This document shows, in pieces, positions 1 to 52,770 of a stretch of DNA of 64,000 nucleotides. The position numbers and the translations under genes are program-made. This DNA comes from Schmidtea nova. Lineage: Eukaryota. The stretch spans positions 419,926,001-419,990,000 of the forward strand of contig CM097882.1 of NCBI GenBank assembly GCA_044892505.1. The letters run 5' to 3'. Position 1 is the first letter of the stretch, and every line of letters starts with the position of its first letter. The notes under the pieces are model-generated. The model was not told the origin of the DNA and did no database searches. It worked only from the letters and a program-made list of their open reading frames with translations.

Positions 1-357
1 ATTTACGATAATGGAAGATTAATTATTAATGAATTATGTATTATAAACGTTAATAATATTTTTAGACCTAAATATTACATATATAATAAAGTTTGTAGTG
101 AGTGGTATGAGGAGGAAGATTACTTTTGTCCTACATGTATTATGAAAGATATTGAAGATACTAGTGCTATTTTCTATGTCATGGATATGGATAAACTTAT
201 TGCTTTGAAGAAATATTTTCCCACTTTGAGATTAATCAAATATAATTTAAAAGAAATTGATGCTGTTCCCGATAATATTTCCTGTCCATATCGAGATCAT
301 AATGTATGTGCCTATAAAGGATGTTTGGTCGGCGCTATTGATTATTTAAAAGAATAA
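1..357 (+). CDS. Small Cys/His-rich Polinton-associated protein, 5'-truncated by the window edge (paralog of 12060-12461)
   Basis: Frame 1 is open from base 1 (IYDNGRLIINELCIINVNNIFRPKYYIY...EEDYFCPTCIMKD...SCPYRDHNVCAYKGC) and aligns along its length with the 133-aa ORF at 12060. Confidence 0.85.
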   Translation: MYDNGRLIINELCIINVNNIFRPKYYIYNKVCSEWYEEEDYFCPTCIMKDIEDTSAIFYVMDMDKLIALKKYFPTLRLIKYNLKEIDAVPDNISCPYRDHNVCAYKGCLVGAIDYLKE

Positions 358-2437: not shown

Positions 2438-5400
2438 GCTCCTTATATTCAAATTACTGTAATATGTCTGGTAGACATAGTTTTCAATGTCATAAACTTA
2501 TGACAAATTATTATCGTCAAAAGTTTAATGGTATTGACTACTATGTATGCCCAAAATGTGAGACTGCACAAACCTTACCCTACCCTGATTTTTATTTTGA
2601 ACATCGTATTCATCTCAATCAATTTTCGAAATCAAAGAAACTAGTCTTTCAAAATTCTTTTAAGAAATCATCAAATAAAACTTCATCGAAACCTTGGTCT
2701 AATAATGTTTCTGTCGATAAATTGTCTTCGGTTAAAACCTCATCGAAACTTCCGACTAATCCTAAATTATTAAATAATTTATTAAATAATACTAATATTG
2801 AAATAATTAATAAGAAACGCCCTGCTGATAAAATTAAAACCTTAGCACATAAAAAATCTAAACCCGAGATTATTATTATTAGCGATGACGAAATTATTAT
2901 AAGCGACGATGAAATTATTAATCAAATAGGAGGCTCCATCAATATCGATGATGAGCCAGTCATTGAAAAAGATTTAAGAGGATCTCGACGATCATTAACT
3001 TTTAATGTCGAATCACACAATATTAATAAAATAGCTCTCACTGAAAAAATTACGGAACGGCTAAATACCGAAATAATTAAAATGGGGAATGTAAAACTCC
3101 AATTTGCCCTAAATATAGAATTCGAAAAAGACGGGGTTTACAAAAATGAATTTATTTCAACTAAAGCTGAAATATTTTCAGATGATTTATTAATAGAGCT
3201 GATTAGTAAATTAAATAATAAAGTAGAGAAATTCACACATATGGGTAGCGGTTGGACTGTAAATAAAATTAGGGAAATACATTTTATTTTAACAAAATAT
3301 TCACAGATTACTAGATTATCAGGACGCTGTTATTTTAAAACCCCTACACAATTATTAAATAAAAGGGCTATTATTAATGTCGAAAATAGTGATAATCTAT
3401 GTTTCGTATATAGTGTGTTGGCCATAACGAAATATAGTTCAATTAGTAGTAATCGATGTGCAACTTCGAGTTACACCTCTTTTTTAAATAGTTTAGTATT
3501 TAATCCTATAGACGACTGCCCCATGAAGTTATGCAACATCCCAAAATTTGAAAATAATAATCCTGGTTTGGCTATTAATGTACTTTCTTACAGCTCTAAA
3601 GTAAATAGAGATTTTAATGACGAGGAAGACCCTGATTATGTAACTCATCATCCCCACTTAGAAATTATACATAAGACCAAATTAACACATTTAAACCCTA
3701 TTTATCTGTTATTGTTAGAAAATGAGGGGGTTTACCACTACACTGCAGTCATTAATTTACAAAAATTAATGAACTGTCACAAAAATAGGATTGTTTCAGC
3801 TAGGATACAATCTTTATGATGTCCACAGTGTTTAAATGGTTTCCGTAAAAAGGAAACATTCGATACGCATTACAATTTATGTAAAAGAAATCAGATAGGT
3901 ACAACTCTTTTTAGTTTACCAAAAAATAAATTTTTAGAATTTAAAGATTTTTCGAAAACCGTAACCCCACCATTCGTAATATATGGAGACTTCGAGTCTA
4001 TTTTACCGATTGATGACAGGTATCACCAAAAGCATTTACCCATATCAGCAGGGTTGTTACTTATTAATAATTTTAATAATACAAAATCTTATTACCAATT
4101 TATAGGTCTTGAATGCGTAATTGACTTTCTTCGGAAAGTGGAGGAAATTGCTGTCACAATTGTCCTGCCCTATTACGACATTCATGGACATGCTCCATTA
4201 GGGACATTGTCCATTTCTGAGGAACTAAATTTCAGATCTTGCTCTCATTGTTATCTGTGTAAAAAACCTATTAGAAATAGAGTAAGAGATCACGACCACT
4301 TCACCGGCAGATATCTTGGCCCAGCTTGCAACATTTGTAATATTTCCCGTAGAATAAGGAAACATTTGCCTGTAATCTTTCATAATTTGAGAGGTTACGA
4401 CCTACATCACATTTTGAAGTACGGTCTGAAAAAATTTCCTTCTTGGGAATTACATATTATTCCTACCACTACAGAGAAATTTATTTCTCTGATTGCTCAC
4501 ATTAATAAACTGGCTGTTAGGTTTATTGATAGTTACCAATTTGTAACAGCGTCTTTGGATAAAGCAGTTAAAACTCTGTCAGTTTTGCCGCTAACATCGT
4601 CTGTTTTCATCGGTTCCATTATGGATTGTAAGGGTATTTTCCCTTTTAATTTTGCTACGAGTCTTGAGATTCTTCAATCAACTCTTGAATTGCCACCTAT
4701 TTGGGAGGAAGTAACTGAGACTCAATATTTAAAAGCTCAGCAAATCTGGCGCGAACAAAATTGTACAAATTTATTAGACTATATGATGGTCTACCTAAAA
4801 TTGGACGTATTTCTCCTCGCAGATTTTTTCCAGCAATTCCGAGCTATGTCCATTGATCACAATGGCTTAGATCCTTTGAATTTTTATGGAATTCCTGGTA
4901 TGTCATGGGCATCAGCGCTCATGACATTACAGGAACCTATAGAACTTCTACAGGATATGGAAATGTATAATTTCTATGAAGGAGGAATACGGGGTGGATT
5001 GACATTTGTCAATAAACATTATGTTCAAGCGTCAGATGATACTGAGCTTTTATATATAGATATTAATAATCTATATGGTTGGGCTCTTAGCCAAAATCTT
5101 CCTTTCGGTGACTTTAAGTGGGTATATGAAAATCTTGATGTAGTCTTGGCTGAGTGTATGTCGACGGAAATTGATGATCTTCCATATGGGTACACATTGG
5201 AAGTTGATATCGAAATTCCTGAAAACATACACGACTTTTTGGATGATTTCCCTATTGCTGCGGAAAAGAGGTGCCCACCATTGTCGAAGGTTGAGAAGTT
5301 GATGCTCACGCATTACGCAAAGTATAACGATGTTATACATTGGCGACTTCTGAAGATGTTTGTTTTTCTTGGGGCTAAGATTATAAAAATCCATAGGGCG

Positions 5401-6399
5401 ATTAGGTTCAAACAGTCGACTATCTTTAAAAATTATATCGATATTAATACTCAGTTACGAGTAAATTCGACTAGCGAGTTTGGCAGGAATTTCTTTAAGC
5501 TGAAAATCAACAGTATTTATGGTAAATCCGTAGAAAATCTGAAAAAACGGATGAATTTGAGATTATGTAACTCGGCTGAAAAACTGATTACATATTCATC
5601 AAAGCCGTCATTTAGAAAATCAATCAAAATTGATGATAATCTTATTGCGGCACATCTGAATAAAGATTTGATATGTTTAGATAGGCCTAGTTATATCGGT
5701 CAAACGATACTAGATCTATCTAAATTGCGGATGTATCAACTACAATATGTTGAATTGCAGAAATATAGAGATCTCTTTGATTGTACTATAAGTCTTGTTG
5801 CTGGCGACACTGACTCGTTCTTTCTTGAGGTTAAAAACTGTAAACTCGATACTCTTTTACCGGCTATGATATCTGATTGTCTTTTAGACACTTCAAACTA
5901 TGATCACAACCATCCTTTATATTCGTGACAGCTTGACTCTGTTATAGGTAAATTTAAGGACGAGAGTAAGGGTTGTAGATATAAGGAATGGGTTTTCTTG
6001 CGTCCTAAATGTTATAGTCTTCTTGGTGATGACGAATACAACAAAGCCAAAGGGATTAAACTTAAGGAAACTAGAATAAAGCATCAATCTTATATTGATT
6101 GCTATCTGAATGACTGTATCATCACTGTTCCGCAAACTCGTATAGGAACTAAAAATCATCAGCTTTATACTATTAAAAACACCAAAATAGCTCTAACCAA
6201 TAAGGACGATAAGCGGGAATGGGTGGGGAGAAATGCAAGTCTCGCATTTGGGCATTATCTAGGAGTCAATGCTAGAGCCAATGACGATAATATTCCACCG
6301 GATCAATTGCCCGATCAATTAACAAATCTAATAAATGAGCCTCATATCAGTGATCCTTATGATTTCGGTGAATGGGCGGATCCATTTGAAAGAGTTTAA
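2438..6399 (+). pseudogene. polB: Protein-primed family-B DNA polymerase (pPolB) of Polinton/adintovirus unit A, with two in-frame TGA codons (3817-3819, 5926-5928)
   Basis: Track ORFs 2464, 4054 and 5998 share one frame. Motifs: ExoI YGDFES, Endonuclease-VII-like CYLC...RDHDHFTG...CNICN, FHNLRGYD, YIDINNLYG, KLKINSIYGK, GDTDSFF, KFKDE, LRPKCYS. The frame is open back to an AG acceptor at 2436-2437. Confidence 0.95.
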
Positions 6400-7107
6400 T
6401 CAGGTAATTTAAATGTTTAGTAAATTTCATCCCATCATTCATTACATATTCAGAATATTTCAAGCAGAAAAACAAAATCATTCAATTTTATTTCAATCAA
6501 AACATCATCCAATTTCATCAGAACATCAAATTTTTCATCATAATCATCATCATCTTCAACGACTCACATCCTACAAAAATATTTTCTGTTTTTTGATTAT
6601 CTATTTTTCAATAAAATTTTTCGAAAATTTATTTTTCTATATTTTCTATTAAAAATTTTATGTTTAATGTTTGGATAATTTAGNNNNNNNNNNNNNNNNN
6701 NNNNNNNNNNNNNNNNNNNNNNNNNNNNNNNNNNNNNNNNNNNNNNNNNNNNNNNNNNNNNNNNNNNNNNNNNNNNNNNNNNNNNNNNNNNNNNNNNNNN
6801 NNNNNNNNNNNNNNNNNNNNNNNNNNNNNNNNNNNNNNNNNNNNNNNNNNNNNNNNNNNNNNNNNNNNNNNNNNNNNNNNNNNNNNNNNNNNNNNNNNNN
6901 NNNNNNNNNNNNNNNNNNNNNNNNNNNNNNNNNNNNNNNNNNNNNNNNNNNNNNNNNNNNNNNNNNNNNNNNNNNNNNNNNNNNNNNNNNNNNNNNNNNN
7001 NNNNNNNNNNNNNNNNNNNNNNNNNNNNNNNNNNNNNNNNNNNNNNNNNNNNNNNNNNNNNNNNNNNNNNNNNNNNNNNNNNTTAAGATATTGTCACAAT
7101 TTAAAAA

Positions 7108-7524
7108 ATGCCAGCACGTAAATCAGCTTATGATATCAGTGAAGAAAGAAAAATCAATAATGAAGTCAAACCGGTTCAAATGTATTACGATTACAAAATA
7201 TATTTCTTAGTACAAGAAATACCATTTCGTTTGTCGTATCCAGTGAAATTAACAAAGTCTTTGTATGACAATTTAGCTGCAAATTTAAGTAAAGAAGATG
7301 TTGTGGCACTAAATAAAGTTTTATTCAAAATCAATAACAATTTAAGTTGCAAGGAAACCATATGGATTAACAATCGAAAAACTCGTTTCCATGATGCTTT
7401 CCAATCAATCGAATACAAGGATCAAGAAAATTGGTTTATTACCATAATAATTCAGGGCTATAAAATCGATACAAAGGATGTTATAACTCCAATTTGGAGA
7501 ATTGACAGTGCACGATATGCATAA
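7108..7524 (+). CDS. Hypothetical 138-aa protein downstream of PolB-A
   Basis: Intact ATG-to-TAA ORF with protein-like composition, followed by AATAAA-like signals; no recognised family. Confidence 0.65.
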   Translation: MPARKSAYDISEERKINNEVKPVQMYYDYKIYFLVQEIPFRLSYPVKLTKSLYDNLAANLSKEDVVALNKVLFKINNNLSCKETIWINNRKTRFHDAFQSIEYKDQENWFITIIIQGYKIDTKDVITPIWRIDSARYA

Positions 7525-7799
7525 ATGTTATTTTATAAATGTTATTTAATAAATGTTAGTAATTTAAATTTTAGTTTTTGATTGTTCCATTTTTTATAAG
7601 ATNNNNNNNNNNNNNNNNNNNNNNNNNNNNNNNNNNNNNNNNNNNNNNNNNNNNNNNNNNNNNNNNNNNNNNNNNNNNNNNNNNNNNNNNNNNNNNNNNN
7701 NNNNNNNNNNNNNNNNNNNNNNNNNNNNNNNNNNNNNNNNNNNNNNNNNNNNNNNNNNNNNNNNNNNNNNNNNNNNATAGAATAATTTTAAAGTTTTTA

Positions 7800-8930
7800 T
7801 ATTTGACCTACATAATTGTGACATAGAAAATTATCTATTTGACCTACTTTTTTCTTACATAGAAAAATTATATTTCACCTACTTTGTTGACCTTAAAGTA
7901 TCCTTAAAGTACCCTTAATTCTGACTTTGAAAAATTTTGCAATTTATTATTAACCTATTTAATTTTACATAGAAAAAATTTAGAAATTATTATTGACTTA
8001 CTTAATTTGTCCTCGTCGTGACCTTAAATTGACCTACTTAATTCTGACATAGAAAAATTTTGAAAAAATAAAGTTGACCTACTTATTTATGACATAGAAA
8101 AAATTTTCGTGACCTACTTAATTCTGACATAGAAAAATTTTAAAAAAAATAAAGTTGACCTACTTTTTTCTGACATAGAAAAATTTTTGAAAAAATAAAG
8201 TTGACCTACTTTTTTCTGACATAGAAAAATTTTAAGAAAAATAAAGTTGACCTACTTTTTTCTGACATAGAAAAATTTTTGAAAAAATAAAGTTGACCTA
8301 CTTTTTTCTGACATAGAAAAATTTTTGAAAAAATAAAGTTGACCTACTTTTTTCTGACATAGAAAAATTTTTGAAAAAATAAAGTTGACCTACTTTTTTC
8401 TGACATAGAAAAATTTTTTAAATTATTATTGACCTACTTAATTCGTTGTCATAGCAACTATCAAATTTTGAAAAAATTAAGTTGACCTACTTATTCGTTG
8501 TCATAGCAACTTAGAAATAGTTGACCTACTTTTTTCTGACATAGAAAAAATTTGAAATTTATATTTGACCTATTTATTTTAACCTTAAATTCACCTTAAA
8601 AATATTTGACCTACTTAATTTGTCCTTATCGTGACCTTAAATTGGCATTCTTTTTGACCTTATAGTGTCCTTAAAACGACCTTGACCTACTTTTTTGTCC
8701 TCAAAGTGTCCTTAAACCATAAATTTGACCTTAAATTCACCTTAAAGTGTCCTTAAAACGACCTTGACCTACTTTTTTGACCTTAAAGTGTCCTCAAAGT
8801 GACCTTAAGCGAAAAATTTGACCTTAAAGTGTCCTTAAAGTGTCCTTAAGCAAAAAATTTGACCTTAAATTGACCTACATAAAATTTGACCTACATAAAA
8901 AAAAAATTTCTAGGGGGGGGGGTCTTGACC
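7800..8930. repeat. Tandem array with a 46-bp core unit (AAAGTTGACCTACTTTTTTCTGACATAGAAAAATTTTTGAAAAAAT) and degenerate flanks, ending in a G-run
   Basis: A 46-bp period is visible (TTGACCTAC at 8155, 8201, 8247); roughly 30 TGACCT hexamers by eye count. Confidence 0.95.
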
Positions 8931-8931
8931 T

Positions 8932-9969
8932 ATATCTGGCGGGCTCACTTCCTACTACTTTCTACTTAGCAACAGTTGTCCCGATATACATCCAGATAAT
9001 ACTTCCAGTAATTTCATGGTCAATCTTTAAAATCCAATGTATTTGGACGGGATTTGGGAAGTCGCTCTCTTAGACTTTACATTTGTGTATAATCCATTTC
9101 CATTTTACAGTAAATCAGAAATTCGGTACAAAAAGAAAACTATACATACAAAATATAAAAATTTGATTATCAACAATCAACTTTGTGAAGTTGATATATC
9201 TAATCCTGCCGATGATATTGCTCAAATGAGTAGCGATAGACATTCTATTTATTTTACCTGTGATAATTTTCCCTTCACTATAACTTTTGATACTTTGGCA
9301 ATGGCAAAAAGAATGGGATTAACGAAACAGAGTATTGTAAGTCCTACAGATACATACAAGATACCGTTACCGGCATATGGTATAGATGGTCCATTAACGG
9401 AAAAAATTAGAATAAAGATGGAGTACAAGGCTGATTCTGCATTTATACATACATTTGCCGATAATTTATACATATCGAAACTGGATGAAATGCAATCATA
9501 TTTTATTCTAAATTGTGCAAGTATTTTTAAATCGTTGGAGTTGGTAGATGATAGTTACTTCAAATTCAGTTTGAATGCAGATGTTAGCGAAATAACCTTT
9601 GACAATAATCTTGTAAAAACATTGGGATTATCGAAAGCAACATATGCTCAAGATGGAAGCTTCACTGTTGGAATATATAAACCGAAAATAATTAAACTTC
9701 ATCAGCAAATGTTCATTTACAGTAATATAGTCAATCCTATAATTGTTGGTGATTCATTAGTTCCCATGTTGAAATCTGTATGGATTGAAAAATATGAACA
9801 GGATGAGGTTGTTCAAATACAAGTTGAAAATCCAATGTATTTATCTGTTTCAACATCCTGTATAAACAATATAGAAATAAATATCCGAGATGATAGTGGT
9901 AATTTAATAAACTTTCCAAAAAATTCCAAAACTCATTTGACTCTACATTTTCGAAAACATCATGAGTAA
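8932..9969 (+). pseudogene. Polinton minor capsid protein (penton), with in-frame TAA at 9028-9030 and no ATG before the conserved N-terminus
   Basis: Reading upstream of ORF 9037 in frame gives YYFLLSNSCPDIHPDNTSSNFMVNL*NPMYLDGIWEVAL. The C-terminus MFIYSNIVNPIIVGDSLVPMLKSV...NIEINIRDDSGNLINF...LTLHFRK is typical of Polinton penton proteins. Confidence 0.85.
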
Positions 9970-10327
9970 TCCCGATATAATTTCATTGTACAGTAATAGT
10001 CAAACTGGTGGCGAATTACCGTATTTTATAGGTAAACAGTATGGATCAGGTTGGTTGAAAACTATTGGAAGATTTGCACTTCCACTACTTAAGCGACTCG
10101 GTAGTTTTGGAATGAAAACTGCTAAAGACGTTATAATGAAAGATCAGAAAATTTTGCCTACTTTGAAAACGAATACTATGTAGGCTGTATCCAAGGCGAT
10201 ACCGTCAATTTCAAATATGTTTTCCAAAAATGAACCGGAACCTGAACCAGTAGGACCAAGACGTAACAAGATTAGAAAACGTATAAACAAACGAATGAAA
10301 GGTCATGGAACTATATTTGAAGAATGA
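9962..10327 (+). pseudogene. Small basic Polinton core/virion protein (QxGG and QxGxG type), with in-frame TAG at 10181-10183
   Basis: YSNSQTGGELPYFIGKQYGSGWLKTIGRFALPLLK; the frame continues past the TAG through an Arg/Lys-rich tail to a TGA that overlaps the MCP ATG. Confidence 0.75.
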
Positions 10328-11544
10328 TTTGCGGTAAATCTGAATTATGTCTTTTTGATCGACCATCACCTCAAGCAGTTATTGAATATGGAGTGTTTGA
10401 AGATGTATTTCCAATGAATTCTATTACAGATAGTAGAAATGATGTTGAATTTTACATTAATGGATCGGCAACTGAATATTTGGATTTGAACGATACTTTA
10501 TTATCCGTTACTGTCAAGGTTCTAGATAAAGATAAAAATAAATTAGTTGATGCGAGTGATGTTGTGCCTAATAATTACCTGTTTCATACTCTTTTCAACG
10601 ATGCGATTCTTGGATTTAATAATATAAAAATCGAGGGTAGAAACAATACATATGCACACAAGGCCATAATCGAAACTGTTTTAAATTATACTAGCGATAC
10701 AAAAGAAACATGTCTTACTCCAATGGGATCAATTTCATCTGACGATAGGAAAAAGTGGATCAAGGGATCTAAACTTTTCAACATGTGTTCATCATTACAA
10801 CTCGATTTTATGGATCAACCTAAATACTTACTTCCCGGAGTTAATGTACATATTAGATTGAAGAGATCTGAATCTTCATTATCATTGAAATCTGCAGCTG
10901 GGAAACCAATAATCCAATTAGTAGACGCTAAATTAATGGTTCGAAGAGTTCGATGTGAATCTTCAGTTTTGGCCGGTCATCAAATTGGTTTAAATAGTAA
11001 ACATGCAATTTATCCATTAAAATCCAAAGAAATCGTATCGTTTGCAATCGGTAAAGGCGCATCGTCATTTTACAAGGAGCAAATATTTGGAGATAGAAGA
11101 ATGCCTAATTTCATTCTTGTGGCTTTTCAAACTGAAAATCAATATAATGGATCATATGCTGAATCTGCATCTACATTCAAACATTTCAATGTGACTTCAT
11201 TATCGTTATCGAAAAATACCGATTTTCGAGAAACTTATACTCAAGATTTTGAAAATGATAATTTTAGTGCCACATATATGCAAAGTCTTGTCAGAAATCT
11301 CGGATATTTGGATAAAAACTTGAATTGCGGTATAAGTCTGGATGAATTTAAAACTAAATATCCATTCTTTACATTTGTGCTCGCTCCCGATTTTGATTTG
11401 AATCAAAGTCAAATCCCTCAAAACGGAAATTTACGACTCGATATAAAGTTTGCAAAACCCATTGATGAACCGGTTCATGTAATTATATATGGAGTTTTTG
11501 AAAATGAAGTTCAAATTACTGCCAATCGAACAGTACTAGTTTGA
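10324..11544 (+). CDS. Polinton/adintovirus major capsid protein (double jelly-roll, hexon-like)
   Basis: Intact 406-aa ORF with CGKSELCLF, VEFYING...YLDLNDTLL, QPKYLLPGVNVHIRLKR and a C-terminal G.LRLDIKFAKP...VIIYGVFENEVQI, matching remembered Polinton MCP motifs; it lies between penton and protease. Confidence 0.9.
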   Translation: MICGKSELCLFDRPSPQAVIEYGVFEDVFPMNSITDSRNDVEFYINGSATEYLDLNDTLLSVTVKVLDKDKNKLVDASDVVPNNYLFHTLFNDAILGFNNIKIEGRNNTYAHKAIIETVLNYTSDTKETCLTPMGSISSDDRKKWIKGSKLFNMCSSLQLDFMDQPKYLLPGVNVHIRLKRSESSLSLKSAAGKPIIQLVDAKLMVRRVRCESSVLAGHQIGLNSKHAIYPLKSKEIVSFAIGKGASSFYKEQIFGDRRMPNFILVAFQTENQYNGSYAESASTFKHFNVTSLSLSKNTDFRETYTQDFENDNFSATYMQSLVRNLGYLDKNLNCGISLDEFKTKYPFFTFVLAPDFDLNQSQIPQNGNLRLDIKFAKPIDEPVHVIIYGVFENEVQITANRTVLV

Positions 11545-11649: not shown

Positions 11650-12027
11650 ATGGAGTAAGTTTTTTAATTGATTAATTATTTATTTTTAATTAGTTCTATT
11701 CAGGTATTACATCAAGGTAAAAAACTATTGGGAAATCAATTTATTGGAGTATTTCCGCTAGATAAAATACCTTATTTGAAAATGAATCAAGCCATCATTG
11801 TAAATACTCAGACATCTACGTTGGGTGGTGAACATTGGATTGCAGTTTACGTGAAACCAGATCGAATACATGTATTTGATCCCTTTGGGTATTATTATCC
11901 GAATTTACTTGTTCGAAAACTTCAAACTATCGGTAAACCTATTGTGTATAATAGAATTCGATATTAGCATCCCTTAACAATCACTTGTGGTGAACATTGC
12001 CTTGCATGGTTGAAATCAATGTTATAA
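11650..12027 (+). pseudogene. Adenain-like cysteine protease with a 39-nt intron (11655-11693) and in-frame TAG at 11965-11967
   Basis: ATG GA|GTAAGT...TTAG|T TCT gives MDSIQV. Motifs: FIGVFPLD, IVNT, GEHWIAV (His), VFDPFG (Asp), Y*HPLTITCGEHC (the stop replaces the conserved Gln before the catalytic Cys). Confidence 0.9.
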
Positions 12028-12059
12028 ACAATTTCTTTTAATAAATTTTATTTGAAAAA

Positions 12060-12461
12060 ATGTCTTGTTATTTTATCGATTTTTATGGATATAATGAATT
12101 GGGTGGAACAACAATTAAGGAATTATGTATTATGAATGTCAATAATATTTTCACACCCCAGTATTATATATACAGTGATTTATCTTTCTGGCCTGATCGT
12201 ATAGAATCGTTTGAAGGACAAGATTATTTTTGCCCAAAATGTATAATGGATGATATAACAGATAAAGGAGCTATTTTCTATGTTACAGATAATGAAAAGT
12301 TGCATGTTTTGAAGAAGTATTTCCCTAAATTAAGATTAATTAAATGTAATTTTAAAGAAGTTGAATATGTTCCAGAAAACATCTCATGTCCCTATAAAGA
12401 TCATTGTATGTGTGCCTATAAAGGGTGCTTGTCTGCTGTTGTAGATTATTTAAAACAATAA
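12060..12461 (+). CDS. Small Cys/His-rich Polinton-associated protein, 133 aa
   Basis: Intact ORF with YFIDFYGY, IKELCI, FCPKC and CPYKDHCMCAYKGC; paralog at 1-357. Confidence 0.85.
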   Translation: MSCYFIDFYGYNELGGTTIKELCIMNVNNIFTPQYYIYSDLSFWPDRIESFEGQDYFCPKCIMDDITDKGAIFYVTDNEKLHVLKKYFPKLRLIKCNFKEVEYVPENISCPYKDHCMCAYKGCLSAVVDYLKQ

Positions 12462-12594: not shown

Positions 12595-12755
12595 TCATGA
12601 CGTCACATGTCTTTGTCGCGATACAAAGCAAGTATCGTGACGTCAAACACATAAACAAAGGTACATTATGTGTGCAGTATGTGTGCATGTATTTGCCTAT
12701 CCTATCTCGATTCTGATTGGTCGATTAATAAAATTCATCTTTATATAGTATATAC
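12595..12755 (+). promoter_or_regulatory. Putative promoter of the unit-B leader/PolB transcript: two CRE-like palindromes, inverted CCAAT box and TATA
   Basis: TGACGTCA at 12598 and 12638, ATTGG at 12716, TATATAGTATATA at about 12742, ATG at 12825. Confidence 0.55.
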
Positions 12756-12824
12756 TTGCATTATTTCGTCACTTTTTACTCACAAATTTTTAAAAAATAT
12801 ACTAAATTCAATCAATTATTCAAT

Positions 12825-13189
12825 ATGCAAAATATGAAATTAAACTTGGAACGAAGAGTCGCCGGAGGAATTAATAGTAAGATTTTTATTTTATTTTATT
12901 ATTATTATTAATTTCTTTTTTTTTCAAGCTATTAATATCGCAAATAATGTGGCAGGATCCTCAACAACTGGACTGAGAAATCAAAATGATTTAATTGGTA
13001 AAAATTATTACTATTTTATTTTAATTTTCTTTAATATTAATTTTGTAGTAAACAATTACCAAGATGTGGATATCGATGCCCCTCTTAATGATGATGTCAT
13101 GCTTAATGTTGATGTCCCGCTTAATGTTGATGCTCCGATTATTGAAGTCCCGATTTTCAATGGCCAGAGTTTTAAAAACTCTCGAAAAT
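12825..13189 (+). CDS. Multi-exon small leader gene of unit B (exons 12825-12876, 12929-12997, 13049-about 13189), phase-1 introns
   Basis: GT...AG introns of 52 and 51 nt. The joined frame is open (MQNMKLNLERRVAGGINTINIANNVAGSSTTG...VNNYQDVDIDAPLNDD...); it occupies the same position as the 904-1490 gene. The 3' end is uncertain. Confidence 0.65.
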
Positions 13190-14093
13190 GTAATTTTTTA
13201 TTCTTATTTTTTTATATGATGATAATAATAGTATTTTTGGTATTTTTAATTAATTCATATGGATATTTTTAATTAATTTATGAAAAAGAATTTATATTAT
13301 TATTATAAAATAAAGATGATTTTAATGATGAATTTAATAAATGATGAAGAAGAATATGACAAAGTATTGTTGCTGATGAAATGATTATGTTTATTTTTTG
13401 ATGAAATGACAAAGAAGATACATTTTGATGAAGAATATGACGAAATAATAATGAACTATTTTATTGATGAAATTAATAGCAGATGAAGAATATGACAAAA
13501 TAATGATGAATGGAATATTTGATGATCAAATGATAAAGAAGATGAATTCTGATGAAGAAATTTTTTATCATTATTAATGATGATGAAATTATTTTTTTTT
13601 ATTATGACGAATTAATGATGTTAATATTTTTTATAATGATATAATAATGATGAATTATTTTATATTAAATTTAATATTGAATCTACCTTTTATCATATTA
13701 AGTAATTGTTTAAAATATATTATTTAATATGTTAAAAGGTAGATTACTAAGATTAACAAGATGAATTTAGATGTTATATAATGATGATATTTTTTTTAAT
13801 GTCAACAAAAATAGGATAATATGACGAAAACTTTTATATTAATTTATATTTAACATATTAAGTAGTATATAATTCAAACAATTACTTAATATGTTAAAGG
13901 TAAATTAATAAATATGATATTAACAATGCGAATATTGACGAATTGGAATAAAAGTTTTTAAACTATTTTTAATAAAATATAATGATTATATTAGTATTTT
14001 TTTTAACAATTTATAATTATTTAACCATTTATAAATATTATTTAACCATTTATAATTTAACCATTTTATTTAAATTTTTTTTTTAACATTCAG

Positions 14094-17000
14094 GTTCAAT
14101 TTATTACAATTTTTGTAATAGTAGTTCCCATAGTGACTGTCATGTCATTATGAAAAATACTATTCATTTAAATATAATGGTGTCACCCACCTCCTCTGCC
14201 CTAATTGTAAAATTATTGAAACAACATCTTATAGGGAATTTTATATCTTTCATAGGTCACACCTTTCTCAATACATGACTTCGAAAAAATCTCTTTTTAA
14301 TAGCTTATATGCTAATTATATTTTTAATAATAATACCTTTAATCGAAATAATATTAACAACAACAACAACAACTATCATAATACAATTAATAAAAATATT
14401 CTAAATAATCTACAAAATAAGAATACAATTAATCAAAATAATAACCTAAATCAAAATAATAACCTAAATCAAAATAATAATCTACAAAATAATAATAATA
14501 TACAAAATAATCTAAATAATACATCTAATTTAAATAAACGTAAAAATACAACATTAATGGATTCAGTTCCTAAAAAACTTATAATAATCGACATCNNNNN
14601 NNNNNNNNNNNNNNNNNNNNNNNNNNNNNNNNNNNNNNNNNNNNNNNNNNNNNNNNNNNNNNNNNNNNNNNNNNNNNNNNNNNNNNNNNNNNNNNNNNNN
14701 NNNNNNNNNNNNNNNNNNNNNNNNNNNNNNNNNNNNNNNNNNNNNNNNNNNNNNNNNNNNNNNNNTGAAGATGATCATATTTATAATAAAAGTAGCAATA
14801 TAGATATTATATCTGCCATTGACGATGACTTAATCGTCGTCAATGATGATGAATTTAATGAAATGATAAATATTATAAATAATAATAATCAAATTGGTAT
14901 GGGTATTGTTGAAGTTACTTCCGACTTGAACGATACCCATTTTATTATAAAAATGGACGTTTCTAATTTATTATTAAAAACGGTCTCTGTGCCGGATATA
15001 TTGTTAGAGAAATTAAACTCATATATAATTAAATTAAAATCATGTAAAATACAATTTTGTCTCAAGGTAGAATTTGAGAAAGATGATCAATTACAATCTT
15101 TTGTAATCTCAAATTCTGCCAGAGAGTGGAGTGATACCTTTATTGAGGAAGGTATCACTAGTTTAAATGAGAAGATTGTCCAGATTAACGAAAAGGGGAG
15201 TAATTGGACAATCTCCAAAATCGAATATATTAGTTTTTTAGTTACAAAATTTTCAGAGATTAGTAGGTTGAGCGGCAGCAGTTATATCGAAACTCCTAAT
15301 ACATTAAAAAATTTAAGTTGCCTAGTTAATGTCAACAATAACGACACTTATTGCTTTCTATATAGTTTTTTAGCAATAGTTAAATATGATAGTATTGAAC
15401 GCCAATACCGGCATAGGGTTACTTCTTACGATCTTTCCCAACTGACTTTTGACCCGAATGACATGCCTATGAAATTAGTCAACATTAAGAAATTCGAGAG
15501 GCAAAACCCCGGCTACAGCATTAATGTCCTTACATATGACGAAAAGGCCCAAATAGATATAAGTGATAGCGATAATGATGATAATGTCGTTCTTAAACAC
15601 CCTTTTATAGACATAGTATATCGCAGTAAAGTAGTCGGGGCAATTCCAATAAATTTACTTCTCTTGGAGAAAAAAGATAATTTTCATTATCTCGCGATTA
15701 CCGATCTGAATCGCTTTTTGAATTGCCGAAATAGTACCATCACCCCAGTTAGGATTTGCAGCCAATGGTGCCCTCGTTGCTTGAATGGCTTTAGGAACGA
15801 CGAAGCCTTTAATCGTCATAAGGGTCTTTGTACCAAAAATCAGTTGGGTACCACACTCTACACATTACCCAAAAATAAATTTTTAGAGTTTACTGATTGG
15901 AAGAAAACAGTAACTCCTCCTTTCGTAATATATGCTGATTTCGAAGCAATATTACCCAAAGATATTATTCATCACCAAAAACATATTCCTATTGCTGCCG
16001 GTCTTCTTCTGATAAACAACTTTACTGGGGTCAGAATTTACAAGTCTTTTGTAGGATTAGACTGTGTTGACCAATTTCTAAATGAAATTGAGTCAATCAG
16101 TAGATATATAGTCACTCCCTATTATTTTAAGAATTATAAAAAGCGCATGACCATCACTGCGACTTAACAGCGAGAATTTGACAATAGCACTAATTGCTAT
16201 TTATGTAAAAAGCTTTTAAATACCCCTGTTAGGGATCATGACCATTTCACCGGTCTTTATATTGGAGCAGCCTGCTCAGAGTGCAACAAGTCCCGGCAAA
16301 TAAGACACTCTTTGCCTGTTATCTTTCATAACTTGAAGGGCTATGATTTGCACCATATCTTAAAATATGGTCTTTCAAAATACAACACTTGGAATATCAG
16401 TTGTATTCCCTTGACTAGTGAAAAGTTTTTAAGCCTTTTCGCTTATATAGACAGTCTTACTGTTAAATTTATTGACTCCTATCAATTTGTGAGTGAGTCC
16501 TTGAACAATGCCGAAAAAACCCTTAGTTCTTTACCATTAACTCAGTCAGAATTTCGTGGCACTATAGTGACTGCCAAGGGCATCTTTCCATACGACGCTG
16601 CCACTTCTTTAGAAGTATTTAAATCTACCTTGTGTTTACCACCTAAATGGAAAGATATAACTGCTGTCGAGTATGCTGCGGCCCATAAAATTTGGCAAGA
16701 AACCTCATGTACATCACTGTACGATTACATGATGGTTTATTTGAAACTAGATGTTTTTTTATTAGCTGACTACTTTCAGCAATTTCGAATAAAACCAATT
16801 AACCATAACAGGCTTGAGCCTTTAAGTTTTCTCGGAATTCCCGGCATGTCGTGGAGTTCCGCTTTATTAACTCTTGACTCTCCTATCAAGCTCCTCGCCG
16901 ATATAAAGATGTATAACTTTTTCGAGGGCGGTATTCGCGGCGGACTAACGTTTGTCAATAAACATTATGTCAAAACGAGCCCGGATACCGCACTATTATA

Positions 17001-18271
17001 TATTGACATTAATAATTTATATGGGTGGGCCTTAAGCCAACCCTTGCCATGTGGTAATTTTGAGTGGGTCACTGATGACCAATTATTAAATAATATCGTG
17101 TTGCAGTGCACATCGGAAAATCTCGATACACTTCATTATGGTTACACCATAGAAGTGGATTTGGAAATTCCGGCATCGATTCACGACAAACTGGATGATC
17201 TTCCAGTTGCCGCTGAAAAGATGTGTGCACCGGGATCCAAGGTTGAGAAGCTGTTGCTAACGCATCTTCCAAAGAAGAATTATGTTATTCATTGGCGGCT
17301 TCTGCAACTATTTATTAAAATTGGTGTGAAAGTAACGCACATACATCGCGCTATTAAATATAACCAAGAAAAAATCTTTTTTAATTACATAAATATAAAT
17401 ACCAGTTTACGAGCGGCTGCAACTAACAAGCTCGACAAAGATTTTTACAAATTATTAAATAATAGTCTCTACGGCAAAACCGTAGAGAACTTAAAAAAAC
17501 GTATTAATTTGCGACTGTGTAACTCAGCACAAAAACTGCTGACTTACACGTCGAAACCAAATTTTAAAAAAACAAACAAAATCGATAGTGATCTGATCTC
17601 TGTATTGCTTCAGAAGGAATCAGTATGTTTGGATAGACCCAGCTACATCGGACAAACCGTACTGGATTTATCCAAACTTCGTATGTACCAGCTGCAGTAT
17701 GAAGAGTTACAAAAATATCGTAACGACTTCAACTGCGAAATTAACATCGTTGCTGGGGATACTGATTCCTTCTTCTTGGAAATAAAAAATCTGCCTTTGG
17801 ACACTCTTTTAGCTGCCATGATTCGCGATAGGCTTTTGGACACCTCTAATTACGACACTCGTCATACATTGTATAGTAGGACCCTTGATTCTGTGATTGG
17901 TAAATTTAAGGATGAGAACAAGGGTCTACTGTATGATGAGTGGGTTTTCTTAAGACCTAAATGTTATAGCTTGATGGGAGACGAGGCCTGCATGAAAGCT
18001 AAGGGTATCTGTTTAAAAGATGCAGGTCTCACACATCAGTCTTATCTCGACTGTTTTCTTAATGACAAAATCTATAATGTCCCCCAGTTCCGCATTACGA
18101 GCAAAAACCACCAACTTTTTAGTATTAAAAGCAATAAGAGAGCCTTATCTTGTAGGGACGATAAGAGGAACTGGGTGGATAAAAATAAAAGTTTGGCGTA
18201 TGGCCATTATATGGGGGGTGACACCACTATATTTGTAGGTGATGATGGATCAGAACAGCAGCAGCAGCTTC

Positions 18272-18351
<80 letters not shown>

Positions 18352-18411
18352 GGTCCGGCAGATGACCCCTACGAGTTTTACGATCCGACTGCTCGAGACT
18401 ACTTCGGATAA
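14094..18411 (+). pseudogene. polB: pPolB of unit B, with a 1-nt frameshift at about 14157, in-frame TAA at 16165-16167 and a C-terminal polyQ
   Basis: Track ORFs 14275 and 16312 share one frame and carry the same motif set as PolB-A (YADFEA, RDHDHFTG, YIDINNLYG, KLLNNSLYGK, GDTDSFF, KFKDE). Homology to PolB-A extends up to an AG acceptor at 14092-14093. Confidence 0.95.
18271..18351 (+). repeat. (CAA)27 microsatellite encoding polyQ in the PolB-B tail
   Basis: Read directly; in frame with PolB-B. Confidence 0.95.
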
Positions 18412-19273: not shown

Positions 19274-19735
19274 GTTCTTTGTTTAGTTTGCACGTGGATT
19301 GCAAAGTCCTTGTTTAGTTTGCACGTGTGTTGCAATGTCTCTGTTTAACTTGCATACGTGTTGCAATGTCTTTGTTCATGTTGCACATGTATTGCAATGT
19401 CTTTGTTTAGTTTGCACGCGTGTTGCAAAGTTTTCGATGACTCATATTTGTGTTAAAAAAATTTGTGTTAAAAAAATTTGTGTTAAAAAAATTTGTGTTA
19501 AAAAAATTTGTGTTATAAAAATTTGTGTTAAAAAAATTTGTGTTAAAAAAATTTGTGTTAAAAAAATTTGTGTTAAAAAAATTTGTGTTAAAAAAATTTG
19601 TGTTAAAAAAATTTGTGTTAAAAAAATTTGTGTTAAAAAAATTTGTGTTAAAAAAAAAATTTGAAAAAAATTTTTGGCGCGAAAAAAATTTGAAAAAAAA
19701 GTATGAGTCATCGATGACTCATCGATGAGTCATCG
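19274..19735. repeat. Composite array: ~30-bp TGCACGTG/TTGCAATGTCTTTGTT units, about 14 copies of 15-bp TGTGTTAAAAAAATT, then three 11-bp ATGA(G/C)TCATCG units
   Basis: Read directly; it occupies the same position downstream of PolB as the 7800-8930 array. Confidence 0.95.
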
Positions 19736-19747
19736 AAAAAAATTCTA

Positions 19748-19779
19748 CCCCCCTTCTCCCCCCGGGGGGAGGGGGTCTT
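19748..19779. other. C-run/G-run palindrome at the end of the array
   Basis: Perfect 16-bp palindrome CTCCCCCCGGGGGGAG at 19756-19771, followed by GGGGTCTT. Confidence 0.8.
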
Positions 19780-20288
19780 TGTTCTCTTTTTTCCGCCCAC
19801 GCAATGAGTCATAATGTCTTTGTTCCCGGCTCCACACATCTACCTACTTCGAAGCACGGCGAAACCTGAAAGGAATAACATAATAATAAACAGTAATAAC
19901 AATACAGAACTTGCCACTCGACCGAGATGAGATAGCTGTGTGATGAGCGAACAAAAACAATCAGGCGAGAACAAGAGCTGTCAAAATATCAGCAATAAAG
20001 AAAGCACAATATATAATAAATTACCATTGAGTAATTGAAAACCACTGAGGCCTGAAACAGAAAAGCGATGAATAATAAAATCTGTCAATAGAATTACCAG
20101 AGCAAAACGAAATTGCTGAACGCAGCAAATGCGGGGGCGGATTTCTTGGATAATAAATAAAAAACTAAAATAACAATAAAACCAATTAATCATAAGCAAT
20201 GAGTAATTACCAAAACTCATCGGTTTAATGAAAGAAAAATAAACAATTAAAAAATAAACGAATGACAAATAGACAACCATACTGAATT

Positions 20289-24814: not shown

Positions 24815-25155
24815 TTTTTGTTTGTGATCAGCGTGAATATGAAAATATGTAAATATTAAAACAAGTCTATTAATTTTTACTCCATTTAATAATTACTTAA
24901 ATTAAATTAATTAATTTAAAAAATAAAAGAAATTTATAAAATTGAATATTTAATCTAAGGCACTACAATAATTATAATAAAATTATATAAGTATTTCTTC
25001 GGATGTCATCTTGGTTGTATTTCCAATGAATTGAATAAATATATTTTATTTTACGGAAAATTTATTTACATTTAAATACACTGTATTATGTAATCATATA
25101 ATATTTATATAATAACAAGTCTAAAAATACATAAAACATTTTCAAAGTTCAAAAC

Positions 25156-26103
25156 ATGCCTATGAGAAAAGTAACAAAAAGTTTACAAGATAAAAAACGT
25201 GAAAAATCGAAATCAAAAAAATCAACTTCAATATTTAAATCAATTTTAAAAAGCATAACAAAGGGGAAATTTGCACCTTTCCTTTCAAAATTTAGATCAA
25301 ATTTTAACAAAGAGCCAGCTAATGAATATGTTGTTCTGAAACCCTTATATACTACCAGTGGGTCCACCATATTGCTAGTAGAAGAGGAAAGATCTGGACA
25401 AAAATACATTCAGAAAGTGTTTAAAAACGCTTTATTTTTTACAAATGAATTGAAAATGATGCTTAAAGTTGGTCAACATGACAATATAATTCCATTCATT
25501 GAATCCATTGACTCCTACATATTAGGCAAATCTCTGATATACGAGTTTGCTAACGGCGGTGATCTCTGCCATGAAATCATGTCAAGTGGAAGAGTTACCA
25601 ATCATACAGCCATGACAATAATGTTACAAGTTTTTAGTGCAGTCTCATTTATACATTCAAAGTCCATCATTCATCGTGACATAAAGTTAGATAACATTGT
25701 TTGCTATAAACATAACAATATCTTGATAAAAGTCAAACTGATCGATTTCGGGTTTTCTATTATATATGATAAGAAAAAGCCCATTGTAAGTTTGGCAGGA
25801 ACAGTGGGCTACATGGCACCGGAAATGCTTTTATATCAACCCCATACGTTGGCAGTTGATATATGGTCATGTGCGATTCTCATGATAACTGTTTGCACTG
25901 GTCGTCATCCATTGAATCCGAATATATTAACGACATTTGAAATTAAAAATATAACTCTCTATGGTAAAATAGACCTGGCTGTCATTGAAGACATAGATAC
26001 ATTTGTCGCAAATATTATTCGAAAGATGTTGCTAAAAGCACCATCACAACGACCACCAGCAATTGATATATTGAACAGCCTGAAAAGTCACTGTTTTGAC
26101 TAA
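25156..26103 (+). CDS. Intronless Ser/Thr protein kinase (CAMK-like), 315 aa
   Basis: IYEFANGGDL, IIHRDIKLDNI, KLIDFGFS, GTVGYMAPE and DIWSCAI are present; the Gly-rich loop is degenerate. Confidence 0.92.
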   Translation: MPMRKVTKSLQDKKREKSKSKKSTSIFKSILKSITKGKFAPFLSKFRSNFNKEPANEYVVLKPLYTTSGSTILLVEEERSGQKYIQKVFKNALFFTNELKMMLKVGQHDNIIPFIESIDSYILGKSLIYEFANGGDLCHEIMSSGRVTNHTAMTIMLQVFSAVSFIHSKSIIHRDIKLDNIVCYKHNNILIKVKLIDFGFSIIYDKKKPIVSLAGTVGYMAPEMLLYQPHTLAVDIWSCAILMITVCTGRHPLNPNILTTFEIKNITLYGKIDLAVIEDIDTFVANIIRKMLLKAPSQRPPAIDILNSLKSHCFD

Positions 26104-33750: not shown

Positions 33751-36700
33751 TCATCCATAAATGAAACGAGAAATTGATCCATTTCTAAATGTACATTTAT
33801 ATATTAAACGAAAATCGAGAAAATGAAAATTTGCACCATCATCAAAAAACTCAATTTCATTTTTATCTGGAACAATCGATGGAGCGATTTGTTGATAAAC
33901 AGGTTGATTAACAGACGCTCGGTTTGTCATGTCATTTAATACAGATTTGGGATCGAAAATAATTGGCGGAATTTCAGAGCACTCAATTATAATATCTTCT
34001 ATGTCTTTTATACAGATCAACGGGTGATTTCCCCAATCTTCATCTCCTGGAGAAATTATGTCTGCGATATTTGACTTGGTTACGTTGAAATAATATTTCT
34101 TTCCGGATGGAGAGAAAATTGATACCTGATTATTATGAATGTAATATAAAAATATTTCGATTTTCAAGCCAGTATTTTTTAGATGTTTTGAATAAAGATA
34201 ATTATCGTAATAATAGTGTTCTGAAATTGATAGTTTTAGAGAAAATGATACTTAACATATATTCCGTTGTTGACGTCATTTTTTAATGTATAAATATGTG
34301 TGTGTCCGACAATTTAATTTTTTTAAATTATTTTTTAATCATTTCAATTATCGTATATTTATATAAAGCACAAAAGTTATTCTTATATAATATTACCTAC
34401 ATATTATTTCTGTATGTGATAACTTTAATAAATATATGATAAATTTATGATAAATGTATTCTTATATAATATTACCTACATATTATTTCTGTATGTGATA
34501 ACTTTATAATAAATATATGATAAATTTATGATAAATGTATTCTTATATAATATTACTTACATATTATTTCTGTATGTGATAACTTTAATAAATATATGAT
34601 AAATTTATGATAAATGTATTCTTATATAATATTACCTACATATTATTTCTGTATGTGATAACTTTATAATAAATATATGATAAATTTATGATAAATGTAT
34701 TCTTATATAATATTACTTACATATTATTTCTGTATGTGATAACTTTAATAAATATATGATAAATTTATGATAAATGTATTCTTATATAATATTACCTACA
34801 TATTATTTCTGTATGTGATAACTTTATAATAAATGTATGATAAATTTATGATAAATGTATTCTTATATAATATTACTTACATATTATTTCTGTATGTGAT
34901 AACTTTAATAAATATATGATAAATTTATGATAAATGTATTCTTATATAATATTACTTACATATTATTTCTGTATGTGATAACTTTAATAAATATATGATA
35001 AATTTATGATAAATGTATTCTTATATAATATTACCTACATATTATTTCTGTATGTGATAACTTTAATAAATATATGATAAATTTATGATAAATGTATTCT
35101 TATATAATATTACTTACATATTATTTCTGTATGTGATAACTTTAATAAATATATGATAAATTTATGATAAATGTATTCTTATATAATATTACCTACATAT
35201 TATTTCTGTATGTGATAACTTTAATAAATATATGATAAATTTATGATAAACGTATTCTTATATAATATTACTTACATATTATTTCTGTATGTGATAACTT
35301 TAATAAATATATGATAAATTTATGATAAATGTATTCTTATATAATATTACTTACATATTATTTCTGTATGTGATAACTTTATAATAAATGTATGATAAAT
35401 TTATGATAAATGTATTCTTATATAATATTACTTACATATTATTTCTGTATGTGATAACTTTAATAAATATATGATAAATTTATGATAAATGTATTCTTAT
35501 ATAATATTACTTACATATTATTTCTGTATGTGATAACTTTATAATAAATGTATGATAAATTTATGATAAATGTATTCTTATATAATATTACCTACATATT
35601 ATTTCTGTATGTGATAACTTTATAATAAATGTATGATAAATTTATGATAAATGTATTCTTATATAATATTACTTACATATTATTTCTGTATGTGATAACT
35701 TTAATAAATATATGATAAATTTATGATAAATGTATTCTTATATAATATTACTTACATATTATTTCTGTATGTGATAACTTTAATAAATATATGATAAATT
35801 TATGATAAATGTATTCTTATATAATATTACTTACATATTATTTCTGTATGTGATAACTTTAATAAATATATGATAAATTTATGATAAATGTATTCTTATA
35901 TAATATTACTTACATATTATTTCTGTATGTGATAACTTTATAATAAATGTATGATAAATTTATGATAAATGTATTCTTATATAATATTACTTACATATTA
36001 TTTCTGTATGTGATAACTTTATAAACAAAATTATAATTTTTATCAAGAAAAAGTATTAGACCACTTTATGAAATATTAGATTTTAATAATTATAATACTT
36101 AATTTAATTAGGAAATTAAAAAATTCAAGTAAATATTAATAATATTTTTTTAAATATTGAATTTCCGTCATAAAAATATTTTTTTTCATTAAGTATAGTT
36201 AAAAAGGAAAATTAAATGAAACTACTAGAAAATAAAGATAATTATCGTAATAACAAAAGTGTTCTGAAATTGATAGTTTTTGAGAAAATGAAACCTAACA
36301 TATATTCCGTTGTTGACGTCATTTTTAATGTGTATACATGTGTGTGCGTCCGACAATTTATTTTTTTTAAATTATTTTTTAATCATTGCAATTATAGTAT
36401 ATTTATATAAAAGCACAAAAGGTATTCTTATATAATATTACTTACATATTGTTTCTGTATGTGATAACTTTATAAACAAAATTATAATTTTTATCAAGAA
36501 AAAGTATTCGACCACTTTATGAAATATTAGATTTTACTGATTATAATACTTAATTTAATTAAGAAATTAAAATATTCAGGTAAATATTAATAATATTTTT
36601 TTTAAAAATTGAATTTCCGTCATAAAATATTTTTTTTCATTTAGGTATAGTTAAAAAGGAGAATTAAATGAAACTACTAGAAAAGTTATTGAAGTTCTTT

Positions 36701-41856: not shown

Positions 41857-42064
41857 CTAAATGAACTCATAAATTTTAAATGAGTAGAAATGTGTTTTAA
41901 AAAAAGTTTTAAAAAATTCTCAAAGTTAAGTGACAGAATTGATATGCATTTCCAAAAAAAATAAAAACGATAAAGGGGTTAATGGAGTATGACTTGTGAA
42001 TTAAATTTTTTTGTGAATTAAAACTTTGTTGAAGGTCAAATAAAAGAAATTGTATAATTAAAAA

Positions 42065-42068
<4 letters not shown>

Positions 42069-42115
<47 letters not shown>
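42069..42115. repeat. (TA)n microsatellite abutting the transposon TIR
   Basis: Read directly. Confidence 0.95.
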
Positions 42116-42118
<3 letters not shown>

Positions 42119-52674: not shown

Positions 52675-52770
52675 GTAAAAACAGCTTTACATAATCGTGA
52701 TTTGTTTTGTTTTTCAAACGGGAAATCTTTTAGCATACCTATTATAGAGGTATAAAGACTACCGTCTCTG

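Follow-up and report, generated by a model that had tools for sequence, protein, structure and literature searches.

Two Polinton/Maverick elements, units A and B, are found in a 64,000-nt stretch of the 1.25-Gb genome of Schmidtea nova (assembly GCA_044892505.1, contig CM097882.1, positions 419,926,001-419,990,000; hereafter the window), and each contains a gene for a protein-primed DNA polymerase B (pPolB). We consider it highly probable that the pPolB mRNA of these elements is cis-spliced from an upstream leader and that the splice junction supplies the first Cys of a predicted zinc finger. In unit B, transcription would start from promoter-like motifs at 12715-12775 (GATTGG at 12715, a TATA-like box at 12742 and TCACTTT, which we take to be initiator-like, at 12769), and translation from the ATG at 12825 in a leader of three exons. 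The host spliceosome would then remove a phase-1 intron of 0.9 kb and join the leader in cis to the exon at 14094, where the T at 13189 and the GT at 14094 would complete a Cys codon for the predicted first zinc ligand. The product would consist of the leader, two Cys/His fingers, a linker, a terminal protein (TP), a vOTU domain and the polymerase. Units A and B represent two of at least 10 diverged Polinton families that we distinguish in this genome (A-G and I-K; core identity to A is 54-58% in those measured), and the same order of promoter-like motifs recurs at 790, 825 and 853 in unit A and also ahead of the leaders in families C, D, E and G.

Predicted layout of the pPolB leaders

All features of this section lie on the forward strand. 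The leader of unit B begins with exon 1 (12825-12876; 52 nt, ending in phase 1), followed by intron 1 (12877-12928; 52 nt, GT-AG), exon 2 (12929-12997; 69 nt, phase 1 at both ends), intron 2 (12998-13048; 51 nt) and exon 3 (13049-13189; 141 nt), which ends with NSRK and the T of the split Cys codon. That all three exons are phase 1 and that a donor candidate lies at 13190 agree with the original prediction, which was made from the window alone. The long intron within the first Cys codon (13190-14093; 904 nt, 16% GC) starts with the donor T|GT, the best of the nine GTs in the last exon, and ends with an acceptor that ranks first among 28 AGs. It also contains an imperfect palindrome of about 236 nt at 13675-13910, while the long introns of other families contain unrelated tandem repeats or microsatellites. 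The pPolB exon (14094-18411) encodes the Cys/His finger module, a low-complexity linker, the TP, vOTU, Endonuclease_7 and DNA_pol_B_2.

The leader of unit A (904-1485) consists of five phase-1 exons (904-949, 1004-1066, 1112-1201, 1250-1324 and 1381-1485) with a total of 126 codons plus 1 nt. Exons 3 and 4 arose by tandem duplication, as is expected where exons are symmetric and of phase 1. The long intron in the first Cys codon (1486-2437; donor T|GTTAGT, acceptor TAAG|GC) has both of its splice sites in all 30 A loci, and the pPolB exon follows at 2438-6399.

Both acceptors that had been proposed are real: TTCAG|GT with the exon starting at 14094 in unit B, and TTAAG|GC with the exon starting at 2438 in unit A. 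As had also been described, the unit B frame reads SIYYNFCNSSSHSDCHVIM, shifts near 14151-14160 and resumes as YSFKYNGVTHLLCPNC. This frameshift is private to the copy in the window, for 28 of 29 other B loci read through it and only L048 stops there. The unit B copy is broken further by a stop at 16165-16167 and by N at 14596-14765, and the unit A copy has stops at 3817-3819 and 5926-5928. That both pPolB copies in the window are broken would fit an AG that arose by chance in an AT-rich, decayed copy. However, a 1320-codon frame runs from the acceptor in 113 of the 150 A siblings listed (counted by hand), and the same site is present in 10 families with only 54-58% core identity to A; many B-like siblings have frames of 1400-1480 codons. 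A chance AG, whose probability we regard as virtually negligible, was rejected because the site is conserved across 31 B loci, 116 of 126 locus hits and 30 A loci.

Conservation of the splice sites and reading phases

For family B, 36 loci were tried and 31 were aligned by homologous columns; the five that were dropped by the search pattern (L036, L038, L040, L041 and L043) have the same three-exon layout. The ATG, donor 1, acceptor 1, the last donor and the PolB acceptor are each kept in all 31 aligned loci, and the split codon is TGT or TGC, both Cys, in every one of them. Exon lengths in the leader change by multiples of three, whereas intron lengths do not: exon 1 is 28, 52 or 55 nt long (always 1 mod 3), exon 2 is a multiple of three in 30 of 31 loci and exon 3 varies from 114 to 194 nt, while intron 1 ranges from 45 to 54 nt with all residues modulo 3. 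When acceptor 2 was moved to the nearest AG, the leader was whole, with all sites present and in phase 1, in 26 of the 31 loci. With its GT-AG ends kept, its interior variable and its phases compatible, 13190-14093 has the characteristics of a spliceosomal cis-intron.

Across the genome, the acceptor was located from the second Cys rather than from the AG, in locus hits that were not de-duplicated, so that some sites were fetched twice. AG|GT or AG|GC is found in 116 of the 126 hits, and AG|GA or AG|GG in none. Six of the 10 exceptions are rows from two non-PolB sites whose exon itself contains the Cys, and the others are one frameshifted copy, one pattern slip, one copy with AG changed to AT and one rearranged copy. 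Similarity was claimed to stop exactly at the AG in both units, and this holds: an in-frame stop is found 0-10 codons upstream and no in-frame Met upstream of the AG in 30 of 30 B loci, and the 90 nt upstream of the acceptor give only AT-rich, low-complexity matches.

By a donor score that uses intron letters only and ignores the exon side, the top donor of the last leader exon is in phase 1 with a T at position -1 in all 10 representatives of eight families (A, B, C twice, D, G twice, I, J and K), compared with a T at -1 in two of 20 internal donors. The leaders of G and K are single coding exons, so that their phase needs no assumed introns. The leaders comprise 54-147 codons in one to five exons, are of low complexity and not alignable between families, and always end in phase 1. 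The long intron measures 442-1067 nt in the 10 representatives, and the other leader introns are about 50 nt.

These phases also bear on whether it is a trans-spliced leader RNA, and not the cis leader, that is joined to the acceptor. In favor of this, a strong AG stands before a frame that lacks its own Met, and flatworm spliced leaders are described, in the part of the source consulted, as ending in AUG and able to supply a start (PMC12582326). However, an AUG-ended leader would be read in phase 0, closing after 14-47 codons in all 10 representatives, and, with a leader that lacks AUG, translation would begin at the first ATG, which in unit B is out of frame (+49), and the first finger would be lost. 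Trans-splicing leaves the phase-1 donor with T at -1 and the Cys-compatible GT or GC unexplained, and a conserved, in-phase cis donor upstream is at odds with a trans-spliced gene. We therefore regard trans-splicing as extremely unlikely and the cis-spliced leader as the better account.

Contigs from runs X1-X4 of one study, compared with both units, cross the short introns, have no GT-AG joint listed and carry transposase-library adapters at their ends; being unspliced and bearing these adapters, they behave as DNA and are uninformative on splicing. Their depth is much higher over the leader promoters (12600-12800 and 700-830) than over the genes, which could reflect open chromatin or merely sequence common to many copies, and this depth is not used here as support.

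The Cys/His finger module and its leaderless relatives

A profile of the finger region matched 46 database proteins, from which 34 finger modules were parsed. A Cys is located 4-7 residues before the second Cys in 33 of the 34 modules, and the 34th has it by eye; in 19 of the 33 this Cys is found within eight residues of the start Met. Seven of 90 fetched metagenome or viral loci hold the finger module, and all seven have an ATG and, 3-8 codons further on in the same frame, the Cys; in six of the seven, a TATA-like box was recognized by eye 35-90 nt upstream. Because these relatives are leaderless and have a contiguous Cys, the residue that is missing from the PolB exon is the one that the splice would supply.

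In 30 aligned rows, the columns C, C, C-x2-C and H-x2-H are invariant and one H is near-invariant. We predict a zinc site C-x6-C-x4..9-H-x1..6-C whose first ligand is the split Cys. The model of the finger of one relative, P0127, has a pLDDT of 84.5 and contains no metal. Fold searches of the finger module returned a best Z of 2.2 and, beyond that, only weak rows of Kaiso fingers (E 1.5), a result that is not evidence of a new fold. A search for junction-spanning proteins (37-210 aa) with a 12-row finger alignment covered 67 candidates and yielded none at E<=0.001. Only two distant proteins were matched by the N-terminal 330 aa of A, and the ESM Atlas gave only unnamed matches at 0.78-0.80.

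Two further copies of the finger, at L197:1501-1716 and L198:1501-1710 (4.6 kb apart), have the Cys inside the exon, contiguous as K-C or P-C. They are 68% alike, with no polymerase or other Polinton gene within 19 kb around, and are possibly a captured host gene.

In the pPolB exon, a QxGxG or QxGG motif is found ahead of the TP (at 14890 in unit B and 2923 in unit A); it may be a site where the element protease frees the N-terminal module. The linker before this motif also has hydrophobic-acidic motifs (IIIISDDE and LIVVNDDE, at 2869-2916 and 14830-14853), which we take to resemble SUMO-interacting motifs.

Selection and alternative starts

Selection was estimated by pairwise counts of the proportions of synonymous (pS) and nonsynonymous (pN) differences on related sequences, and the figures are thus not independent tests. 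For the codons between the acceptor and the first in-frame Met common to the units (pre-Met), 11 family representatives give a mean pS of 0.83 and a mean pN of 0.35, and pN/pS is 0.22-0.36 in six other named pairs. Among 15 representatives of B sub-families, pN/pS is 0.37 before the Met, 0.21 after it and 0.43-0.55 in the leader exons. For A and B alike, protein similarity does not run upstream to an in-frame ATG, and purifying selection acts on the pre-Met segment in most comparisons; together with a split Cys codon that matches the leaderless relatives, this argues, as had been supposed, that the splice is functional and did not arise by chance.

Several observations weigh against the proposed leader splicing. 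The comparison of A with B that had been suggested as a check gives a pN/pS of 0.67 over 18 pre-Met codons, which is weak alone, and 0.43 after the break, with synonymous sites saturated. The putative zinc binding is argued from conserved Cys and His residues only. In family D, 4 of the 126 hits show an in-frame Met within the intron, 14 codons upstream; the leaders of family E were unreadable in frame in all four copies tried, which are degenerate; no leader was found for family F; and the internal exon lengths used for the donor comparison were set by eye. By a crude acceptor score, the PolB acceptor comes first in only three of eight families (B, D and J) and fourth to sixth in the other five, so that splice signals alone do not fix the pairing, and acceptors other than the PolB AG may be used too.

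Because other AGs score equally or higher in five of the eight families, and AATAAA hexamers are present in the B intron, the last leader donor might mainly join another AG within the long intron to yield a short leader protein, with the polymerase mRNA as a minor isoform. However, the intron interiors are unrelated repeats between families, no open reading frame (ORF) exceeds 36 codons in that of B, and five AATAAA in 904 nt at 84% AT are close to chance. We regard this possibility as unlikely, and it would still require the junction of 13189 to 14094 for the polymerase.

The remaining alternative concerns the internal Met. An in-frame ATG that is common to units A (2500) and B (14150-14152) had been overlooked by the original prediction; its observation that the first Met of unit A is replaced by Ser in B depends on the aligner, which places either a gap or Ser there. 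The in-frame Met 19-22 codons past the acceptor is invariant in 12 of 12 alignment rows, which also counts against leader splicing, and several database gene calls begin at it (P0003, P0006, P0150, P0153 and P0167). In 24 of 31 B loci, the leader frame continued into the intron reaches a stop after a hydrophobic tail of 26-31 residues. The leader could accordingly be a separate small gene, with the polymerase starting at the common Met from its own promoter and the AG being a relic. Against this, the codons before the Met keep C, H and C and are under purifying selection, and the read-through tail is only 1-15 residues long and unrelated in other families. No TCA[CG]TT initiator-like motif is found in the long introns of A or B. 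The database starts at the internal Met are prokaryote-style calls, whereas the cluster mates P0173 and P0183 extend upstream through the first Cys, and the internal Met itself is lost in single copies (L183 and L189). A start at the internal Met is thus very unlikely, and a polymerase start in the spliced leader is preferred. The hydrophobic tail and the intronic AATAAA were judged to be by-products of AT richness.

Other introns and a proposed history

The integrase and protease genes of these elements also look split. In A- and B-type copies, the integrase is interrupted within its QTDLG-KEF motif by a phase-1 GT-AG intron of 33-43 nt, and the ATG of the protease is in a 5-nt exon, so that pPolB, integrase and protease all need GT-AG introns to be in frame. 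The outside relatives L091, L092 and L095 have intron-like breaks in or after the finger. The split integrase and protease together with these breaks indicate that introns are a trait of this clade.

In a core tree built by a quick method and without a row for family K, a weakly supported branch (SH-aLRT 76) within the relatives has the 10 genome families on one side, and the six leaderless loci of this tree lie outside them; a tree of the finger only was unresolved. We propose that an ancestor with the arrangement TATA-ATG-x(2-7)-Cys gained an intron inside the Cys codon, after which the stretch from Met to Cys would have grown to 54-147 codons as symmetric phase-1 exons were gained and duplicated. 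That a single intron was inherited and has persisted through about 45% protein divergence is probably the simpler reading. The splice start had been called independently conserved in unit B; it is independently kept, but is not of independent origin, as there was probably one intron gain.

Among B copies, pS is 0.41-0.47 in the leader and 0.11-0.18 in the adjacent polymerase, a difference that is partly an effect of how the copies were selected. B copies (L031-L072) that are near-identical at the polymerase start carry quite different leaders, which suggests that leaders may be exchanged by recombination in the long intron.

Comparison with known systems

The elements in the window resemble Polintons/Mavericks (adintoviruses, Eupolintoviridae; Alpha-type with OTU and PF03175 pPolB), as described in the portions consulted of PMC8502044 and PMC11161782, in terminal inverted repeats (TIRs), 6-bp target duplication, integrase, packaging-type ATPase, adenain protease and a TP-vOTU-polymerase protein. 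According to the sections seen, vertebrate Mavericks have intronless ORFs (PMC8097293) and the core genes of a nematode Maverick are likewise intronless (bioRxiv 2022.07.12.499685), whereas pPolB, integrase and protease here are predicted to be split by introns, and a two-finger module and a predicted spliced leader precede the TP. An intronless core is thus a described trait of some lineages and not a defining one for Polintons.

Adenoviruses, a related virus group, also make replication proteins from spliced mRNA: this is stated for E2B in the part of PMC9499273 that was consulted, and for HAdV-37 the pTP annotation places a first coding exon of 9 nt some 3.3 kb upstream (PMC2397415, seen in part). 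The three-codon exon of the adenovirus gives the Met, whereas the leaders here have 54-147 codons in one to five exons and a junction that splits a conserved Cys codon. Integrated polinton-like viruses of dinoflagellates also have spliceosomal introns, in the form of introners within eupolintoviral elements (PMC12166617, in part); those are young mobile insertions, whereas the intron position here is old and fixed in 10 families, and the intron sequence does not form a repeated unit. Group I introns are reported for polinton-like viruses of protists (PMC12220804, from the portion seen), and planarian Polintons are described as targets of piRNAs (PMC8532177, likewise in part).

The third intron (IVS3) of the Drosophila P element (PMC9762592, as far as consulted) offers a further likeness, because there too the key enzyme of a transposon needs one intron to be removed by the host machinery; regulation is proven for the P element, while the case here is known from gene architecture alone. 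We tentatively raise, as a rather doubtful idea, that the long intron is a similar switch at which host splicing decides whether the full polymerase or only a leader peptide is made, and that the leader is a fast-changing, exon-shuffled module that is swapped between sub-families and cut off together with the fingers by the element protease. The size of the long intron, the unalignable phase-1 leaders and the higher pS of leader than of polymerase are hints only in this direction.

No description of a spliced leader on Polinton pPolB was found in listings of literature on Polintons or in those parts consulted of the main texts of PMC10748475, PMC8502044, PMC6431247, PMC11296320 and bioRxiv 2024.03.25.586562. 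It is already known that polinton-like elements can carry introns and that adenovirus replicase genes are spliced. Annotations generally give each Polinton core gene as a single ORF; ORF calling in these elements would yield a shortened polymerase without its true start, and the integrase and protease would be affected likewise. If the proposed splicing is correct, a high-copy, recently expanded virus-like element would depend on host splicing for its replicase, and the host or the element would gain a control point over it. It would also exemplify how a new N-terminus is built when an intron is gained and exons are then duplicated, the leaderless relatives serving as outgroup.

Element identity and neighboring genes

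Unit A is complete: its left end, at L062:736, lies some 9.3 kb ahead of the window, and its right end is at 8959. Its TIRs are about 1.1-1.3 kb long, with a 6-bp target duplication, TTCTAC, on both sides; the right TIR (7777-8959, unstranded) ends with ACTACT followed by TTCTAC. The ends of unit A carry AGTAGT...ACTACT, which we take to be the end motif of Polintons/Mavericks. Unit A is nested within a minor-capsid-like gene of a B-type copy (junctions at 8959/8960 and L062:736), and a second A copy (L064:8098-8108) is likewise nested in a capsid gene of a B-type copy. For unit B, the right terminal repeat region (19276-19849, unstranded) is an inverted match to the left end of the B-type copy L073, and only this right repeat was located, the left end of this copy not being found.

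The protein-primed PolB domain PF03175 was identified above the Pfam cut-off in both units (E 2.9e-28 in A and 3.5e-27 in B). In unit A, the integrase matches rve (E 4.2e-9) on its first piece and, on its second, rve_3 (weakly) and Chromo, while the packaging ATPase matches Pox_A32 (E 3.7e-6) and the protease Peptidase_C5 (E 6.8e-6), both above the cut-off. The model of the TP-vOTU region of family A has a pLDDT of 90.9; its residues 21-127 resemble the little finger of PolIV (1unn_D, Z 7.7, rmsd 2.5, 90 residues aligned) and its residues 140-282 resemble many OTU domains (8c83_x, Z 7.0, rmsd 3.8, 104 residues aligned). With Z scores that are middling, the modeled order of a little-finger-like TP and then a vOTU before the polymerase appears to be that of polinton pPolB, for which the same TP-vOTU-polymerase order is given in the part of PMC11161782 that was seen. 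The best viral fold matches of the pre-polymerase region are adintovirus and MELD proteins.

The B-type morphogenesis genes (8960-11544, forward strand) comprise the remainder of the minor-capsid-like gene cut by unit A, a small core-like ORF and a major-capsid-like ORF at 10321-11544, the putative names being taken from position and size; the capsid-candidate ORFs (407 and 350 aa), which are in the expected place, are without a Pfam match. A B-type adenain-like protease follows on the same strand (11650-12030), with its ATG in the 5-nt exon 11650-11654 and a predicted intron at 11655-11693, and its homologue in A is the Peptidase_C5 match.

A TATA-binding-protein-like gene is also present in these Polintons, at L062:4060-4569 on the reverse strand and also in L061, L063 and L073. 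It matches Pfam TBP (E 5.5e-14) and TBP of the PDB (E 1.2e-17), and the elements have their own TATA-type promoters. Two small conserved ORFs (window 1-357 and 12060-12461; 7105-7524) flank pPolB in every family looked at, and the one of 139 aa recurs inside both terminal regions of unit A. Outside the elements, at 25135-26103, 34378-36040, 42058-43307 and 52756-54698, the window contains an intronless protein kinase frame (Pkinase, E 8e-44), a tandem array of a 79-81-nt repeat and frames that, we presume, resemble a Tc1/mariner transposase and a gypsy gag-pol.

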